Assembly (NCBI GenBank): GCA_041937175.2 | Contig: CP166615.1 | Coordinates: 1,856,001-1,920,000, forward strand | Reading direction: 5' to 3' | Source: Limnothrix sp. BL-A-16 | Lineage (GTDB): Bacteria; Cyanobacteriota; Cyanobacteriia; CACIAM-69d | Length of the DNA: 64,000 nucleotides | In this document: positions 7,164-14,410 of the stretch, piece after piece | How the letters are laid out: every line of letters begins with the position of its first letter | How positions within the stretch are numbered: position 1 is the stretch's first letter | The notes under the pieces: generated by a model | The model's input: the letters and a program-made list of their open reading frames with translations, nothing else | Told to the model about the DNA's origin: nothing | Database searches by the model: none | Made by a program: the position numbers and the translations under genes

Positions 7164-10100
7164 ATGTTCACCTACGTCAAGCCCGCCGTGCGCCACGTCC
7201 AACCCGAAGATCTTCGGGGGCGGTCTTTAGTCAAGGTGGTCTACGTCGTTCTGGAAGCGCAGTACCAGAGCGCCTTGACGGCAGCAGTCAAGTCGATTAA
7301 TGCCAACAATCCGAATGTGGCCGTGGAAATCAGCGGCTATTTGATTGAGGAACTGCGTAGCCCCGAAAATTACGAAGCCTTTTGTGATGATGTGGCCAGA
7401 GCCAACATCTTCATTGCTTCGCTGATCTTTATTGAAGACCTGGCCGAAAAGGTGGTGGCCGCCGTGCAGCCCCACCGCGATCGCCTTGATGCGGCGGTGG
7501 TGTTCCCCTCCATGCCCCCGGTGATGCGGCTGAACAAGCTCGGCACCTTCTCGATGGCGCAATTGGGCCAGTCCAAGAGCGTGATCGGCGAATTCATGAA
7601 GAAGCGCAAACAGCAAAACGGCAGCGGCTTTGAAGACGCAATGCTGAAGCTGTTGCGGACGCTGCCCAACGTGCTGAAATTCTTGCCCGTCGAGAAGGCC
7701 CAGGATGCCCGCAGCTTCATGCTCAGTTTCCAATATTGGCTGGGTGGCTCGCCGGAGAACCTGGAAAACTTCCTGCTGATGCTGGCCGATAAATATGTCT
7801 TCAAAACAGACAAGTCGGGCCGCGATCAGTCACGCGAAAAAATTGATTTGGACTACGCCGAGCCGGTGACCTATCCCGACATGGGAATTTGGCATCCGCT
7901 GGCTCCCAAAATGTTTGAGGATACGAACGAGTATTTGGCTTGGTATCGCAGCTCGCAGGTAGTGCCCGATGCGGTGCGGGATCCCGATGCACCCTGCGTG
8001 GGCTTGGTGTTGCAACGGACGCACTTGGTAACGGGCGACGACGCGCACTATGTGGGCATGGTGCAAGAGTTTGAAGCCCAGGGCGCGAAGGTGATCCCGG
8101 TGTTTGCAGGGGGCTTGGACTTCTCGAAGCCGGTGGATGAATATTTCTATTTGCCGAGCAAAAACGGCGGTGAACCGACCACGATCGTGGATGCGGTGGT
8201 GTCCCTGACCGGGTTTGCCCTGGTGGGCGGCCCGGCGCGGCAGGATCACCCGAAGGCGATCGAGTCCTTGAAGCGCCTGAACCGGCCCTACATGGTGGCG
8301 CTGCCGTTGGTGTTCCAAACCACCGAGGAGTGGGAAGAAAGCGAGCTGGGCTTGCACCCGATCCAAGTGGCGCTGCAAATCGCGATTCCTGAGTTGGATG
8401 GGGCGATCGAGCCGATCATCGTCTCCGGTCGTGACGGCAACACCGGTAAGGCGATCGCCCTGCAAGACCGAATCCAGGCGATCGCTGAGCGCGCCCTCAA
8501 GTGGGCCAACCTGCGCCGCAAACCGAAGCTGCACAAGAAGGTGGCGATCACCGTCTTCAGCTTCCCGCCAGACAAGGGCAATGTGGGTACGGCGGCCTAT
8601 CTGGACGTGTTCGGCTCGATCCACGAGGTGCTACAAGGGCTGAAGCGCGAAGGCTACGACGTGCAAGACGTGCCCGAATCGCCCAAGGAGCTGATGGAAG
8701 CCGTCCTGAAGGATGCCCAAGCCCAATACGCCAGCCCCGAGCTGAACGTGGCTTACCGGATGAGCGTGGCGGAATACGAAAAGCTGACCCCTTATTCCAA
8801 GAAGCTGGAAGAAAACTGGGGCAAGCCGCCGGGCAACCTGAACAGCGATGGCCAAAACCTGCTGGTGTTCGGGAAGCATTTCGGCAATGTGTTCATCGGC
8901 GTGCAGCCCACCTTCGGTTACGAGGGCGACCCGATGTTGCTGCTGTTCTCGCGATCGGCTAGCCCCCACCACGGTTTCGCCGCCTACTACACCTATCTGG
9001 AAAAGGTCTGGGGCGCGGATGCAGTGCTGCACTTCGGGACGCACGGATCGCTGGAGTTCATGCCCGGTAAGCAAATCGGCATGTCCAACGACTGCTATCC
9101 CGACAGCCTGATCGGCTCGATCCCCAACCTCTACTACTACGCCGCCAACAACCCCAGCGAAGCGACGATCGCCAAGCGCCGGGGCTATGCGGAAACCATT
9201 TCCTACCTGACCCCGCCCGCCGAAAATGCCGGTCTCTATAAGGGTCTGAAGGAACTGAGCGATCTGATTGGTTCCTACCAAACCCTGAAGGATACGGGTC
9301 GCGGCCCCTCGATCGTCGATGCGATCATTGAGCAAGCCCGCGCTGTCAACCTGGATAAGGATGTGGAGCTGCCGGAAACGGCCGGTAAGGATCTCAGTTC
9401 CGAGCAACGGGATACGGTGGTGGGTTCCGTTTACCGCAAGCTGATGGAAATCGAGTCGCGCTTGCTGCCCTGCGGTTTGCATGTCATTGGCAAGCCACCG
9501 ACAGCCGAAGAAGCGGTGGCGACCCTAGTGAACATCGCCGCCCTCGATCGCCCCGAAGATGGGATCATCGCCCTGCCCCGGATCATCGCCAACAGCATCT
9601 ATCGCGACATCGAAGAAATCTATCGCAACAGCGATAAGGGTGTGCTGGCCGATGTGGAGCTGTTGCAGCAAATCACCCTGGCCACCCGCACAGCGGTGAA
9701 GGCGATGGTTGATGCCCAAATCGACACCGATGGTCGCCTCTCGAAACTGGCGAAGTTCAACTTCTTCGGCTTCGGAACCCAGAAACAACCTTGGGTTGAT
9801 GCCCTGAGCGAGGCTGGGTTTAACAATGTCGATCGCGACTCCCTGAAACCCCTGTTCGAGTACCTGGAATTCTGCCTGCAGCAAATCGTAGCCGACAACG
9901 AAATGGCCTCCCTGCTGCGGGCCCTCGAAGGCGAATATATCCTGCCCGGCCCCGGTGGCGACCCGGTGCGAAACCCGGATGTGCTGCCCACCGGAAAGAA
10001 CATGCACGCCCTTGATCCCCAGTCGATTCCGACCACGGCGGCGGTGCAGTCGGCCAAGGTGGTGGTCGATCGGCTACTCGATCGGCAACGGGCCGAAAAC

Positions 10101-11180
10101 GACGGCGCATACCCCGAGACGATCGCCTGCGTCCTCTGGGGAACTGACAACATCAAGACCTACGGCGAATCCCTGGCGCAGATCCTCTGGCTGGTGGGCG
10201 TGAAACCCGTGCCCGATGCCCTGGGTCGTGTCAACAAGCTGGAACTCGTCTCCCTTGAGGAACTGGGTCGCCCCCGGATCGACACGGTGATCACCTGCTC
10301 CGGCGTGTTCCGGGATCTGTTCGTGAACCAAATGGCCCTGCTCGATCGGGCCGTCAAGATGGCCGCCGAAGCCGACGAGCCGTTGGAAATGAACTTTGTC
10401 CGTAAGCACGCCATGGCCCAAGCGGAAGAGCTAGGCATCAACCTGCGCCAAGCCGCTACCCGCGTGTTCACCAACTCCTCCGGCTCCTACTCCACCAACG
10501 TTGGTCTAGCGGTGGAAAACGGCACCTGGGAACAGGAAAAAGACCTGCAAGACATGTACCTGTCGCGCAAGTCCTTCGCCTTCTCCGCCGATAACCCCGG
10601 CGAAATGGAGCAGTCCCGCGAGCTGCTGGAGCGCGCCCTCAAGACCGTGGACGTGACCTTCCAAAACCTGGATTCGTCGGAAATCTCCATGACCGACGTG
10701 TCGCACTACTACGACTCCGACCCGACCAAGGTGGTGGCCAGCCTGCGTGGTGACGGCAAAAAGCCCGCCGCCTACATGGCCGACACCAGCACCGCCAATG
10801 CCCAAGTGCGTACCCTGTCGGAAACCGTCCGCCTGGATGCCCGCACCAAGATGTTGAATCCCAAGTGGTACGAAGGGATGCTCTCCCACGGCTACGAAGG
10901 GGTGCGCGAGCTGGCCAAGCGCCTGAACAACACCCTGGGCTGGAGTGCCACGGCGGATGCGGTGGACAACTGGGTTTACGAAGACACAAACGACACCTTC
11001 ATCGCCGATCCCGAAATGTGCAAGCGGCTGATGGATCTGAATCCTCACTCCTTCCGCCGAATGCTGGGCACGCTGCTGGAAGCCAACGGCCGCGGCTACT
11101 GGGATACGAGCGATGAAAACCTCGATCGCCTGCGGGATCTCTACCAAGAAGTGGAAGACCGCATCGAAGGCATCGAGTAA
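7164..11180 (+). CDS. chlH: Magnesium chelatase subunit H
   Basis: 1338 aa; MFTYVK start, [55 protein letters not shown] end. Confidence 0.98.
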
Positions 11181-11224
11181 GCGCCGTAGACTCTATTGTG
11201 AGTTTCGGCTAGACTAAACTTCGG

Positions 11225-11254
11225 GGGTAGACAGGCTGCTGTCTACCCTTTGTT
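11225..11254 (+). terminator. Rho-independent terminator after chlH
   Basis: GGGTAGACAG-gctg-CTGTCTACCC followed by TTTGTT. Confidence 0.75.
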
Positions 11255-11269
11255 GTATGCGATAAGCTG

Positions 11270-11713
11270 ATGATTGAAGACTATGCCAGCGCCTTTCTGG
11301 AACGCGCTCAAGACCAGGCTGTGCTCGCCCAAGCCGATCGCCGAATTGCGGCTATGCATATGGGCGGTATCATGATTGAATGCCGCCTCAAAGCAGCGAT
11401 TCTCGGGCACTTCTCTGAAGATCGAAGAGATTGGGAACGGTCTAAAAATCCCAATGCTCAACATTGTGGCATTCGCAATCCGGGACATGACTTACATCAG
11501 GCACTGAATGAACTGGACAAGCTTGGAGTTGTAAAAGCATCTGATGATATTCAAGGTGCTTTAGATACTATTCAGAATCCTTTACCTGAATACTCATTTA
11601 TTAATCTTCGTTACTACGGTGGTTCCTTAGAAGCATCAGATTATGAAGACTGGGAAACCAAATATCAGGTTTTCAAAACTTGGTTGGATCAGCAATTGTT
11701 GTCATCTTCCTAA
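11270..11713 (+). CDS. HEPN-like helical protein (putative RNase toxin), copy 1
   Basis: Pattern A..(H/Y)..G..IECRLKA ... GHDL ... LRY typical of HEPN domains; 21 bp upstream of the large ATPase gene. Confidence 0.65.
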   Translation: MIEDYASAFLERAQDQAVLAQADRRIAAMHMGGIMIECRLKAAILGHFSEDRRDWERSKNPNAQHCGIRNPGHDLHQALNELDKLGVVKASDDIQGALDTIQNPLPEYSFINLRYYGGSLEASDYEDWETKYQVFKTWLDQQLLSSS

Positions 11714-11734
11714 TTCATCATCTTAATAATTCGT

Positions 11735-14410
11735 ATGAACCAACAACCATTTAGTCCCTGGGATATTCAAAATATTTACCAACGTCTGAGAAATCGCTTT
11801 GTTGTCAGCTCATCAAAGGACTGGGTTCATCTATATCGATCGTCCTCTGGACTACTGAACATTACAGTTGTCAGTGATCAATTTCGCGGCATTAGTTATA
11901 GTGACCGACGCATTCAGGTCAATGAAATTGTTCAAAGTTCGACAGGTTCTCTCTCTCTCTACACGCAGGATGAAGCCAAAATTCTGGAAATAGAGAAGCC
12001 TGCTAGCGATCGCGTTCAATCAGTCAGAACTTGGCATGACTTAGCAATTTGGGCGCAAAATCCCCAGAACCACGGCGAGGTGCAAGAACGATCGCCCCGA
12101 TCGCCCCGTACTGTTGCTTTCTATTCCTTCAAAGGGGGTGTTGGCCGCACTACAGCCCTGATTCACGTGGCTTGGCTGTTAGTCAAACAAGGTAAAAAAG
12201 TTGTCGTAGTTGATCTAGATATTGAAGCACCAGGACTCAGCAAAGCTTTGGATCTGGATGACTTACCAGAAGTCGGCATTGTTGATTATTTCTATGAACG
12301 AGCTTATGCACCTGATGGAGCAGATTATGAAATCCAAATCGGCGATATCTTAGCAGAATACCGAGATCAGCAATTAGGCGATACCCGTGGTGGACGTTTC
12401 TTTGTTGTGCCCACAGGAAAACTCAATCTTGATTATTTAGCGAAAGTTGACGACTTAAAGGCTAATGCTTGGGTCAATGGCGATGAGTCTCTGTGGGATG
12501 TTTTTCTTCGAGATATCAAAAAACAGATTGATCCAGATTTGATTTTAGTAGATTCTCGAACTGGCTTGAATCAATGGGGCGCTTTTTCTCTGGTTCAAGC
12601 AGCAGATTCTGCCATTTTGGTGTTATTCCCTAATGCTCAAAATGCAGAGGGAGCAAAAATCTTAGTCCAATCTCTCGGCTCACTGGGCAAGCAGAACATT
12701 AATTTTGTCTTTTCACCAATTCCTAATTCAGACTCAAAAGCAATAGCCCAATCAATTCAGCTAGATCTGAATGGAATTATTAATCAATTTATTCCACCAG
12801 CCAGTAGCGATGAGCCAGATGATGAAGATCTAGCTAGCAGTGATGACTTGATTTGTATTGAATATCTCCTGCCGATCGCAGTCGCTCCTCACTATCCTGT
12901 TCATTCTGTCTTGGATTGGTATCAGCCGATCGCCAATTTAATCCTAAAAGACTCAAATTCTAGTGCATCTGTGTCAACTCAATTGCAACATGATCGCTGG
13001 AAAATCATTGAAGATCTCCGGTTTTCGGATGTTGATGCTGCCCAGGAACAGGCCAACCTCAGTCACATTTTTCAAAAGACATCCAGTTTCTATGATTTCC
13101 TAGATGATAAAGTCTGTTTAGTGACTGGTCGAAAAGGAACTGGCAAAACAGCTCTCTACTTTCTGTTTTTGAAACATTTTTCTGTTGCTCAAAAACTCAC
13201 TGATCGCCTGAATAATATTACCGTTCTCTCAGGGCATGGTATGTTATCTTCTGGTCGTCTGACTCAGAATGAATTTGATTTTATCCGTGGTGACTTAAGT
13301 ATATCTCAGGCAAGTTGGTTGGGGTTTTGGGCTGCCTATGCACTCTTCAGAATTATGTCTGATCATAACCAGACCTTGACTAGTCTTAGAAAAGATAAAT
13401 ACAAAGCTCTAAAAGATGGCTTCAGTACCGTAAAGAATCTCCAATTTGGCTCGGAGCATCAAGCGCTATTGCTTCAATGGTCTGAAAGCCGCGAGCTAAG
13501 ACCATTAATTTTTGATGCCTTAAAAGACATTAATAACTATCTCAAGAAGCAAGTCCAAAAAATTTGGCTGCTTTATGACAATCTAGATCAAGACTTGGCA
13601 GAAGCCAATAACTTGCGCAGTGATGCATTGATCGGACTCTTTAAATTAGTCCAAGAGTTTGATGCCAAAGAATTAACCAATCTTCGGATTAAAATTTTTC
13701 TCCGTGAAGATATTTGGGAAAGATTAATTTTTGACAATAGAAGTCATCTTCGCGGTCGATCCATAAAACTAGAGTGGAAGCGAGTTGACCTACTGCGCTT
13801 TGCTTATCGTCAGGTTATTCAATCAGAGAAGTTTAAAGCTCTGGTCAGTCAAGTTGTTCCCATCCCGGATCCTGATGCGGCAACAGAAGAGACGTTGGTT
13901 GAAGCCTTGAAGATCTTGTGGGGCGATCGCATTCGGTTGGGATCGCGTGGGAAATATCTCTACCGCTGGATTTACGATCGCCTGAGTGATACCAGTGGTG
14001 CAACTTATCCCCGTAGTTTGGTAGTGCTATTAGCTAGAGCGCGTGAACTGGAACTAGATAGTAAAGATGATCCCAAGTCCAAGCCACCAGTTGATCGCCT
14101 CTTTCGGAGCGGTTTTATGGCGCGTGCACTCGAAGAAGCCTCACGAGCGCGGTGTAACGAAATGCGCGAAGAATATGGCAATCTCTCAGCTTTTTTTAAT
14201 TCTTTATCGGGAAAAGACCCATTAATGAAAATCGAAGACCTACAGCAATGCTGGGAAAATTCTGCCCGAGAGATTGAGCCGAATTTTGAGCAGTTTGTGC
14301 AGCTTTTGAAGTCGATCGGGCTGGCGGAGTGGCGACCCAAAGATGAACGATATCGCTTTGCTGATCTTTATGTTTATGGGTTCAATATGAACAAAAAAGG
14401 GATGCGATAA
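11735..14410 (+). CDS. Multidomain dual P-loop protein: MNT/BolA-like N-terminus + ParA/MinD-like (KGGVGRTT) + second P-loop NTPase (GRKGTGKT), copy 1
   Basis: FYSFKGGVGRTT, VDLDIEAPG, LVDSRTG; then VTGRKGTGKT, LLYDNLD, IKIFLREDIW, YPR, C-terminal LKSIG...Y.F.DLY..G. Confidence 0.85.
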   Translation: MNQQPFSPWDIQNIYQRLRNRFVVSSSKDWVHLYRSSSGLLNITVVSDQFRGISYSDRRIQVNEIVQSSTGSLSLYTQDEAKILEIEKPASDRVQSVRTWHDLAIWAQNPQNHGEVQERSPRSPRTVAFYSFKGGVGRTTALIHVAWLLVKQGKKVVVVDLDIEAPGLSKALDLDDLPEVGIVDYFYERAYAPDGADYEIQIGDILAEYRDQQLGDTRGGRFFVVPTGKLNLDYLAKVDDLKANAWVNGDESLWDVFLRDIKKQIDPDLILVDSRTGLNQWGAFSLVQAADSAILVLFPNAQNAEGAKILVQSLGSLGKQNINFVFSPIPNSDSKAIAQSIQLDLNGIINQFIPPASSDEPDDEDLASSDDLICIEYLLPIAVAPHYPVHSVLDWYQPIANLILKDSNSSASVSTQLQHDRWKIIEDLRFSDVDAAQEQANLSHIFQKTSSFYDFLDDKVCLVTGRKGTGKTALYFLFLKHFSVAQKLTDRLNNITVLSGHGMLSSGRLTQNEFDFIRGDLSISQASWLGFWAAYALFRIMSDHNQTLTSLRKDKYKALKDGFSTVKNLQFGSEHQALLLQWSESRELRPLIFDALKDINNYLKKQVQKIWLLYDNLDQDLAEANNLRSDALIGLFKLVQEFDAKELTNLRIKIFLREDIWERLIFDNRSHLRGRSIKLEWKRVDLLRFAYRQVIQSEKFKALVSQVVPIPDPDAATEETLVEALKILWGDRIRLGSRGKYLYRWIYDRLSDTSGATYPRSLVVLLARARELELDSKDDPKSKPPVDRLFRSGFMARALEEASRARCNEMREEYGNLSAFFNSLSGKDPLMKIEDLQQCWENSAREIEPNFEQFVQLLKSIGLAEWRPKDERYRFADLYVYGFNMNKKGMR

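Follow-up and report, generated by a model that had tools for sequence, protein, structure and literature searches.

A two-gene cassette lies at positions 11270 to 14410 of a 64,000-nt stretch of the Limnothrix sp. BL-A-16 genome (contig CP166615.1, positions 1,856,001 to 1,920,000 of the forward strand), which we refer to as the window; all positions are those of this whole stretch. The first open reading frame (ORF), P0001, runs from 11270 to 11713 on the plus strand and encodes a small HEPN-fold protein of 147 amino acids, of the PDC-M28A or PA-HEPN1 type. The second, P0002, follows after a gap of 21 nt, spans 11735 to 14410 on the same strand, and encodes a giant protein of 891 amino acids with two ATPase modules. 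Neither is a chance ORF: an exhaustive phmmer search found 80 cluster representatives related to the small protein at E ≤ 1e-3, and the giant has 121 relatives at the same threshold among 8000 scored candidates. Judged by profile matches and domain order, the pair is a member of the HINPO family, PDC-M28 in the PADLOC collection, in which the B and C parts are fused; it is thus already catalogued and computationally described, and not a new kind of system. A first-pass annotation of this DNA had presented the module as a candidate undescribed one, while naming a match to a described system as grounds for giving up that view. Such a match was found at the computational level, in the PADLOC hits to PDC-M28 A, B, and C and in the fit to HINPO as its preprint presents it, the fused form included. 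Two PADLOC models hit one polypeptide, the giant (PDC-M28B, E = 1.6e-38; PDC-M28C, E = 5e-27), and PDC-M28A matches the small protein weakly and partially (E = 3.9e-6, residues 1 to 66).

The giant consists of a hypervariable N-domain (residues 1 to 118; 11735 to 12088, plus strand), a ParA/MinD-type ATPase core with an arginine P-loop (12104 to 12676, plus strand), and an ORC/Cdc6-STAND-like AAA+ ATPase with a C-terminal winged helix (residues 424 to 891; 13004 to 14407, plus strand). In the ParA core, KGGVGRTT occupies residues 133 to 140 (12131 to 12154), DLDIEAPG residues 160 to 167, and DSRTG residues 273 to 277. Residues 124 to 314 match the NCBIfam model NF047398, "KGGVGR-motif variant AAA ATPase" (E = 5.7e-49), and the core is also matched by Pfam AAA_31, CbiA, and ParA; with the MinD and ParA equivalog models, its scores fall far short of the cutoffs. 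The P-loop departs from the canonical deviant Walker A motif, KGGxGK[ST], in that the second lysine is an invariant arginine (R138). The signature lysine K133, the DxD motif, and the Walker B/switch II segment are retained, and a PG motif follows the DxD. Across 27 giants, R138, D160, D162, E164, A165, P166, D273, R275, and G277 are invariant, and G167 is nearly so.

The C-terminal half carries GRKGTGKT at residues 465 to 472 (Walker A; 13127 to 13150), LLYDNLD at 612 to 618, and KIFLREDIW at 653 to 661. Residues 430 to 874 match the NCBIfam family "P-loop ATPase, Sll1717 family" (E = 4.6e-43), and G465, K467, G468, T469, G470, K471, and D615 are invariant in the same 27 giants, with D618 nearly invariant. 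The predicted model of this domain ends in a helix-helix-strand-strand element, a winged helix, and its structural alignment to 2fna and 2qen spans the full length. In structure, the domain comes closest to Cdc6 and to the archaeal ATPases SSO1545 and PAB2304, and not to Avs proteins; a profile search of PDB sequences gave P-loop-level matches only (Cdc6, 0.0032; KaiC, ∼0.06). With a Walker A motif, an acidic Walker B residue, a lid, and a winged helix all present, the domain is an ORC/Cdc6-STAND-like AAA+ ATPase. The two separate P-loop modules reported in the first-pass annotation are thus borne out by the NCBIfam, Pfam, and PADLOC matches and by the structural alignment of the C-domain, and the two ORF lengths, the 21-nt spacing, and every motif quoted there are found in the translations.

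The N-domain had been labeled MNT-like, probably wrongly. A profile-profile comparison (hhalign) of the N-domain family with 25 cyanobacterial BolA sequences gave a probability of 89.7% (E = 1.9e-6, 73 columns), versus 0.1% for 40 MNT sequences. Pfam BolA was matched at E ≤ 1 by 24 of 29 family N-domains, the best at 3.2e-4 and below the curated cutoff; the N-domain of P0002 itself scored 16.3 bits against a cutoff of 25.7. When the N-domain profile was run against PDB sequences, the top 15 rows were all BolA-family or BolA-like proteins (four of them with titles lacking the word "BolA"), the best at 1e-4. The ESM Atlas gave no usable match for this domain. Homology to BolA is supported by these profile comparisons; membership among true, functional BolA proteins is not, because the conserved histidine of BolA (in its R-H-R segment) aligns with the invariant R58 of the N-domain. 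The BolA and nucleotidyltransferase (NTase) folds share an α-β-β-α-β-α order, and a structure search could return either. The apparent BolA affinity differs from the structure-based label of inactive NTase ("iNTase") given in the HINPO preprint. PF01909, the model for MNT-type NTases, has matches at 19 sites in the genome, none of them at the 11270-to-14410 locus; as a separate observation, this number suggests that the genome holds many HEPN-MNT-like modules.

The small protein shows the motifs E37..L40-K41-A42, G72-H73-D74-L75, and R114-Y115. Its AlphaFold2 (AF2) model is all-helical, with a predicted local distance difference test score (pLDDT) of 94.8, and the AF2 and VIA results agree with a four-helix up-and-down HEPN fold. 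Foldseek returned no PDB match at E ≤ 1e-3 for this model; the best credible rows are the HEPN domains 2hsb, 1wol, and 1o3u. The family profile finds eight weaker relatives, and the three of these that were scanned exceed the Pfam HEPN cutoff (24.5 to 30 bits versus 22). Profile-profile alignment of the small-protein family with all eight gave a probability of 96% (E = 4.3e-9), and in the nearest ESM Atlas clusters, 16 to 31% of the members carry PF05168. Against PDB sequences, the only match of the small-protein profile was a designed protein (E = 0.099), so no sequence bridge leads to a solved HEPN structure. From the model, the Foldseek rows, the profile-profile match, and the ESM Atlas clusters, we accept HEPN fold and homology for the small protein, in agreement with its first description as HEPN-like. 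An alignment of 36 family members has eight invariant residues (R12, E37, C38, K41, P71, H73, R114, and Y115); when proteobacterial PDC-M28A proteins are added, the universal residues shrink to R12, E37, C38, K41, R114, and Y115.

The small-protein profile was searched against 401 sampled genomes of the phylum, and the ORFs at 48 loci outside the window's own genome were scored with profiles of the three parts. Matches came from 42 of the 401 genomes (24 of 156 genera). At 38 of the 48 loci, ATPases of this kind are linked to the small gene, which always stands first in the operon, so the conserved pairing that the first-pass annotation had asked about exists. In 28 loci the small gene is followed directly by a fused giant of 869 to 926 amino acids; 5 loci have separate B and C genes, a three-gene form (L049 carries a second such set), and 3 loci, all in one genus, have the small gene with B only. 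Two loci are broken or degraded, 1 lies at a contig edge, and 9 have no ATPase, eight of these belonging to a separate Pfam-HEPN family. At the three B-only loci (L041, L042, and L046; for example, L041 6001 to 10065), the AAA+ half is missing and a GmrSD_N (DUF262) gene and a RiboL-PSP-HEPN gene stand in its place, beside RidA. The sister genome at L043 has a complete fused giant at this site, between IleRS and RidA. At L047 (6001 to 10233), the giant is split into three ORFs with an opposite-strand ORF of 305 codons between the pieces, and this looks like a decaying copy.

The base composition of the cassette is atypical. Its GC content is 0.444 in the small gene and 0.428 in the giant (GC at third codon positions [GC3], 0.38 and 0.37), versus 0.595 in the upstream gene chlH and a genome mean of 0.552. 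The cassette thus falls about 3 standard deviations below the genome mean, and only 1.5% of 3-kb windows genome-wide have a GC content of 0.43 or less. On this composition, the cassette looks horizontally acquired. The gene chlH (7164 to 11180; a CobN/Mg-chelatase H protein of 1338 amino acids, Pfam E = 0) is separated from it by a terminator-like hairpin on the plus strand (11223 to 11250), whose 12-bp stem contains 6 G-C pairs and runs into a T-rich tail, and which lies between the chlH stop at 11180 and the small ORF, 19 nt 5' of the latter. The AT-rich composition and the position right after a chlH terminator were both correctly read at first pass. No sigma-70-like promoter was found between the hairpin and position 11270. 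Beyond the cyanobacteria, fused giants occur under names from Bacillota, Chloroflexota (Ktedonobacteraceae), Methylococcaceae, Burkholderia, and others, and three-gene forms are found on conjugative plasmids of Enterobacter and Burkholderia, where the PDC-M28 models match at 1e-31 to 1e-173. One plasmid copy adjoins an integrase gene, a TIR-domain gene, and a GNAT/DUF1778 pair.

Comparison of close relatives shows that the cassette is a mosaic. From chlH to cynS, the DNA of a Limnothrix relative runs collinear with the window at 88 to 90% nucleotide identity, except for one segment; the replaced segment corresponds exactly to residues 42 to 147 of the small protein and residues 1 to 95 of the giant, where protein identity drops to ∼30 to 45%. 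Residues 96 to 260 of the giant are nearly identical in the same relative. Over 351 pairs drawn from 27 loci, mean pairwise identity was lowest in the C-terminal two-thirds of the small protein (34.6%), the linker between the ATPases (35.8%), and the N-domain (38.2%), and highest in the ParA core (54.2%). Close relatives differ in which segments are swapped. In the L053/L058 pair, the N-domain is 92% identical and the C-terminal part of the small protein is 46% identical, so exchange of the one does not always entail exchange of the other; identities of the different domains were uniformly correlated (0.78 to 0.86), with no signal of specific coevolution between the small protein and the N-domain. 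In G220, a genome of the same family, no cynS was found.

The genome carries three divergent copies of the two-gene design, all with a GC content of 0.40 to 0.44. The second lies in the window on the minus strand, flanked by gyrB and purL: a small partner of 159 amino acids (P0016; 32921 to 33400) is encoded 10 nt upstream of a giant of 880 amino acids (P0017; 30268 to 32910; GC, 0.412) with a KGGQARST P-loop and a GKKGTGKT motif. This giant matches the first one at E = 7.6e-8 in a search of the genome and is matched by PDC-M28B (E = 9.2e-17) and PDC-M28C (E = 4.4e-5). P0016 contains ELAVKD, GHDI, and IRYL motifs; it has no database relative besides itself, and relatives in only 2 other genomes of the 401, where a long ORF again follows directly 3'. 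The third pair, an ORF of 156 codons and a giant of 950 amino acids with KGGVGRTT (G000:C1, ∼3,008,839 to 3,012,177; L010, 4840 to 8178; GC, 0.42), begins 16 nt after the LeuRS gene, and its small partner scores E = 0.02 with PDC-M28A. By sequence comparison, the giants of the three copies are demonstrably related. Homology of the second and third small partners to the first is unsupported (hhalign probabilities, 1.6% and 7.1%).

Domain anatomy and gene linkage are what we observe at these loci, and from them we infer a mechanism. We consider it probable, at roughly 60%, that the pair is a horizontally mobile candidate system directed against mobile elements, phage or plasmid, belonging to the HINPO/PDC-M28 family, with the giant as a two-stage ATP-driven switch and the HEPN protein as the effector. 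The AAA+ module with its winged helix would sense foreign DNA or another cue of infection, and the signal would lead to ATP-dependent dimerization or multimerization of the ParA module. The small HEPN protein, kept inactive on the giant until then, would be released or switched on, and might attack RNA or otherwise arrest the cell, as in abortive infection or dormancy. The reading follows the published proposal but refines it on one point, the site at which the HEPN protein is held: this would most likely be the N-domain/ParA half, as loci that have lost C still pair the small gene with B and as the variable part of the HEPN protein can be exchanged together with the N-domain.

The results that weigh against this reading concern the chemistry of the small protein, the setting of the cassette, and the literature. 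A Pfam scan of the small protein gave nothing significant and no direct match to the HEPN model PF05168. The canonical HEPN RNase motif is Rx4-6H, located where the last core helix begins. It is absent here: R114 is followed by Y115, and no histidine occurs at +5 to +7 in any of the 36 members. The proteobacterial PDC-M28A proteins do not conserve H73, which leaves the family as a whole without a conserved histidine. Since the canonical Arg-His motif is missing, the putative RNase activity of the small protein, as the first-pass annotation had it, is uncertain in its chemistry. That annotation had proposed a nucleoside triphosphate-gated switch holding an RNase: the one published analysis, as far as the preprint sets it out, likewise proposes control of a HEPN effector by an NTPase, and it is the RNase part that finds no support.

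In the main rival reading, the ATPases themselves are the effector: the ORC/Cdc6 module would recognize invading DNA and nucleate ParA assemblies that block replication or packaging, and the HEPN protein would be a non-nuclease sensor or adaptor that binds RNA or nucleotides. The primary model of the HINPO preprint speaks for this, with an ORC/Cdc6 module that senses selfish DNA and guides ParA assemblies, blocking by ParA multimers, an N-domain that senses nucleotides, and the HEPN protein only as a "backup" suicide or dormancy effector; a ParA system whose HEPN domains are catalytically dead is also described there (bioRxiv 10.64898/2026.10.19.760177). The missing motif, and the lack of any histidine conserved from cyanobacterial to proteobacterial members, would fit as well. 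However, R12, E37, C38, K41, R114, and Y115 are kept in very divergent members, as expected of an active or ligand-binding site, and the small gene is retained, always in first position, at the 38 linked loci. We regard this alternative as unlikely, though it deserves to be kept in view, and prefer a HEPN effector under the control of the giant.

As to setting, the copy in the window is flanked by chlH and cynS and lies outside any defense island, contrary to the island association raised in the first-pass annotation. The cassette had no match in 50,697 phage records. At 37 loci whose neighbors were surveyed (139 proteins), the surrounding genes are mostly housekeeping genes, such as groEL/ES, IleRS, Obg, AsnRS, and chlH (at L069 and L081). 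Scattered among them are PIN, ParE, Uma2, Tse2-like, HsdR-like, TaqI_C, HNH, and transposase genes; the HsdR-like and TaqI_C neighbors each occur at 1 of the 37 loci (L060 and L064, respectively). With such neighbors, the cassette acts like a small mobile insertion and not like a component of a classical defense island. In the literature searched, no experiment on PDC-M28 or HINPO was found, and the part of the PADLOC preprint that deals with the PDCs describes them as untested.

Housekeeping neighbors could also point to a housekeeping role, the giant being a cyanobacterial ATPase of the ParA type, devoted to positioning or segregation, for which the small protein would act as cargo adaptor; the giant has the ParA/MinD fold, and its relatives are annotated as "ParA family protein" or "MinD-like ATPase" in the source records. 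A conserved cellular function of this kind is hard to reconcile with the patchy occurrence (42 of 401 genomes), the GC content about 3 standard deviations below the genome mean, the three divergent copies in one genome, the plasmid copies in unrelated phyla, the variable insertion sites, and the HEPN fold of the partner, and we judge it very improbable.

Several of these properties would also suit an addiction module of the toxin-antitoxin type, in which the giant neutralizes a HEPN toxin and the main effect is to stabilize the carrier island or plasmid, not to defend against phage. Copies stand on conjugative plasmids beside an integrase and other toxin-antitoxin genes, the composition is atypical, the genome holds several copies, and the nearest relatives recognized by Pfam as HEPN proteins are paired with an overlapping 129-aa ORF in a toxin-antitoxin-like layout. 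Two large NTPase modules and a sensor-type winged helix nevertheless far exceed what neutralization needs, and the family was first catalogued through copies embedded in BREX, DISARM, or type I restriction-modification (RM) operons (Payne et al., bioRxiv 10.1101/2024.01.29.577857). A pure addiction function therefore seems distinctly unlikely to us, and a switch-controlled effector against mobile elements is the reading we retain.

Some features of the neighborhoods stand apart from these questions. In three distinct subfamilies, chlH stands beside the cassette (the window, 7164 to 11180; a fused form, L069, 1028 to 4837; and a split form, L081, 1300 to 5283), which could reflect chance or a favored insertion site. 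The idea that the cassette always lies downstream of, and co-oriented with, a housekeeping gene was dropped, as only about 21 of the 37 loci were co-oriented in our own tally. Tse2-like ADP-ribosyltransferase toxin genes stand divergently beside the cassette in two genomes (L054, 4654 to 5085; L056, 6620 to 7063). A separate two-gene family occurs in eight genomes (L073 to L080; for example, L074, 5986 to 6764); its HEPN-type gene encodes a protein of 136 to 144 amino acids and overlaps the conserved 129-aa ORF by about 22 nt. The three of these proteins that were scanned are recognized by Pfam HEPN; neither Pfam nor PADLOC matches the 129-aa ORF, and its identification as a homologue of MNT, BolA, or the N-domain was rejected (hhalign probabilities, 0.06 to 0.2%). 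The two genes may be a HEPN toxin-antitoxin pair in which the partner is new.

We offer a more far-reaching proposal as a long shot. HINPO might be a P-loop-driven counterpart of HEPN-MNT toxin-antitoxin pairs, in which a hypervariable N-domain derived from BolA and not from an NTase, together with an arginine-P-loop ParA module, would hold the HEPN protein in check, whether through binding or through modification of the invariant Tyr115 beside Arg114. The hypervariable C-terminal part of the HEPN protein and the N-domain would then form a matched specificity cassette exchanged between strains, and the three copies would be a small receptor repertoire.

HINPO and PDC-M28 are widespread, in cyanobacteria, Bacillota, Chloroflexota, methanotrophs, Burkholderia, and enterobacterial conjugative plasmids, and combine three well-known switch and effector folds. 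Conceptually, the present locus adds little. It offers a compact two-gene form with three divergent copies in one complete genome, and its family offers natural chimeras that mark the exchanged segments as well as variants that lack the AAA+ half but retain the ParA half and the small gene. If the BolA-like N-domain or the missing catalytic histidine holds true, the published model, as the preprint frames it around a nucleotide-sensing inactive NTase and a backup HEPN RNase, would need revision.

Among known systems, the closest is HINPO, a computational prediction by Li, Burroughs, and Aravind (bioRxiv 10.64898/2026.10.19.760177, 22 October 2026), and no other relevant paper with that name was found. 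As described in that preprint, it consists of an upstream, formerly uncharacterized HEPN protein (PA-HEPN1), a protein with an N-domain and a ParA module, and a downstream ORC-CDC6/STAND ATPase, fused "in several cases"; its N-domain evolves rapidly and was assigned as an inactive Pol-beta NTase by structure searches, its ParA clade (ConB2) is defined by an arginine in place of the Walker A lysine and a PG motif after the sensor-1 DxD, and it is enriched in multicellular bacteria. Going by this description, the Limnothrix pair has the same gene order, with an upstream HEPN protein, an arginine-P-loop ParA module with PG, and an ORC/Cdc6-STAND ATPase that is fused here. The ConB2 hallmarks are present as KGGVGRTT and DLDIEAPG, invariant or nearly invariant in the 27 giants, and the named relatives are filamentous cyanobacteria (Limnothrix), in keeping with the multicellular enrichment. 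Its N-domain likewise evolves fast, but is linked by sequence profiles to BolA, and in the preprint by structure to NTases. PADLOC PDCs are phage defense candidates chosen for their embedding in BREX, DISARM, or type I RM operons, and PDC-M28 comes from this "guilt-by-embedding" set, though it is not named in the main text of that preprint (bioRxiv 10.1101/2024.01.29.577857); no paper in the literature searched named "PDC-M28" or "Sll1717," and the one paper with "KGGVGR" was an unrelated review of lectins. The A, B, and C models all match the pair in adjacent genes. It differs in that B and C share one polypeptide, in the weak and partial match to A, and in that the window copy is neither within nor beside a BREX, DISARM, or type I RM operon, which was a criterion of discovery and not a requirement for membership.

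More distant systems share single components. In the type VII HEPN-MNT pairs (HepT/MntA of Shewanella; 5yep, 7ae2, and 8xdj), the HEPN protein has an MNT partner and the Rx4-6H motif; here no MNT partner was detected (probability, 0.1%), the motif is absent, and the regulator is instead a protein of 891 amino acids with two ATPase modules. Compared with the STAND and NLR-like antiviral ATPases (Avs and the CED-4/Apaf-1 type) and with BrxC of BREX, the effector is a separate small protein and not an N-terminal fusion, no repeat-type sensor domain is present, and a ParA ATPase stands in series with the AAA+ module. ParA-HeH systems with a third, HEPN gene (the HepS type of a Salmonella prophage) are cited in the HINPO preprint as experimentally shown antiphage tRNA anticodon nucleases (bioRxiv 10.64898/2026.10.19.760177). 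As characterized there, they belong to another ParA clade (ConB1), have HeH as the partner, and lack an ORC/Cdc6 module, and in these respects they differ from the Limnothrix pair.

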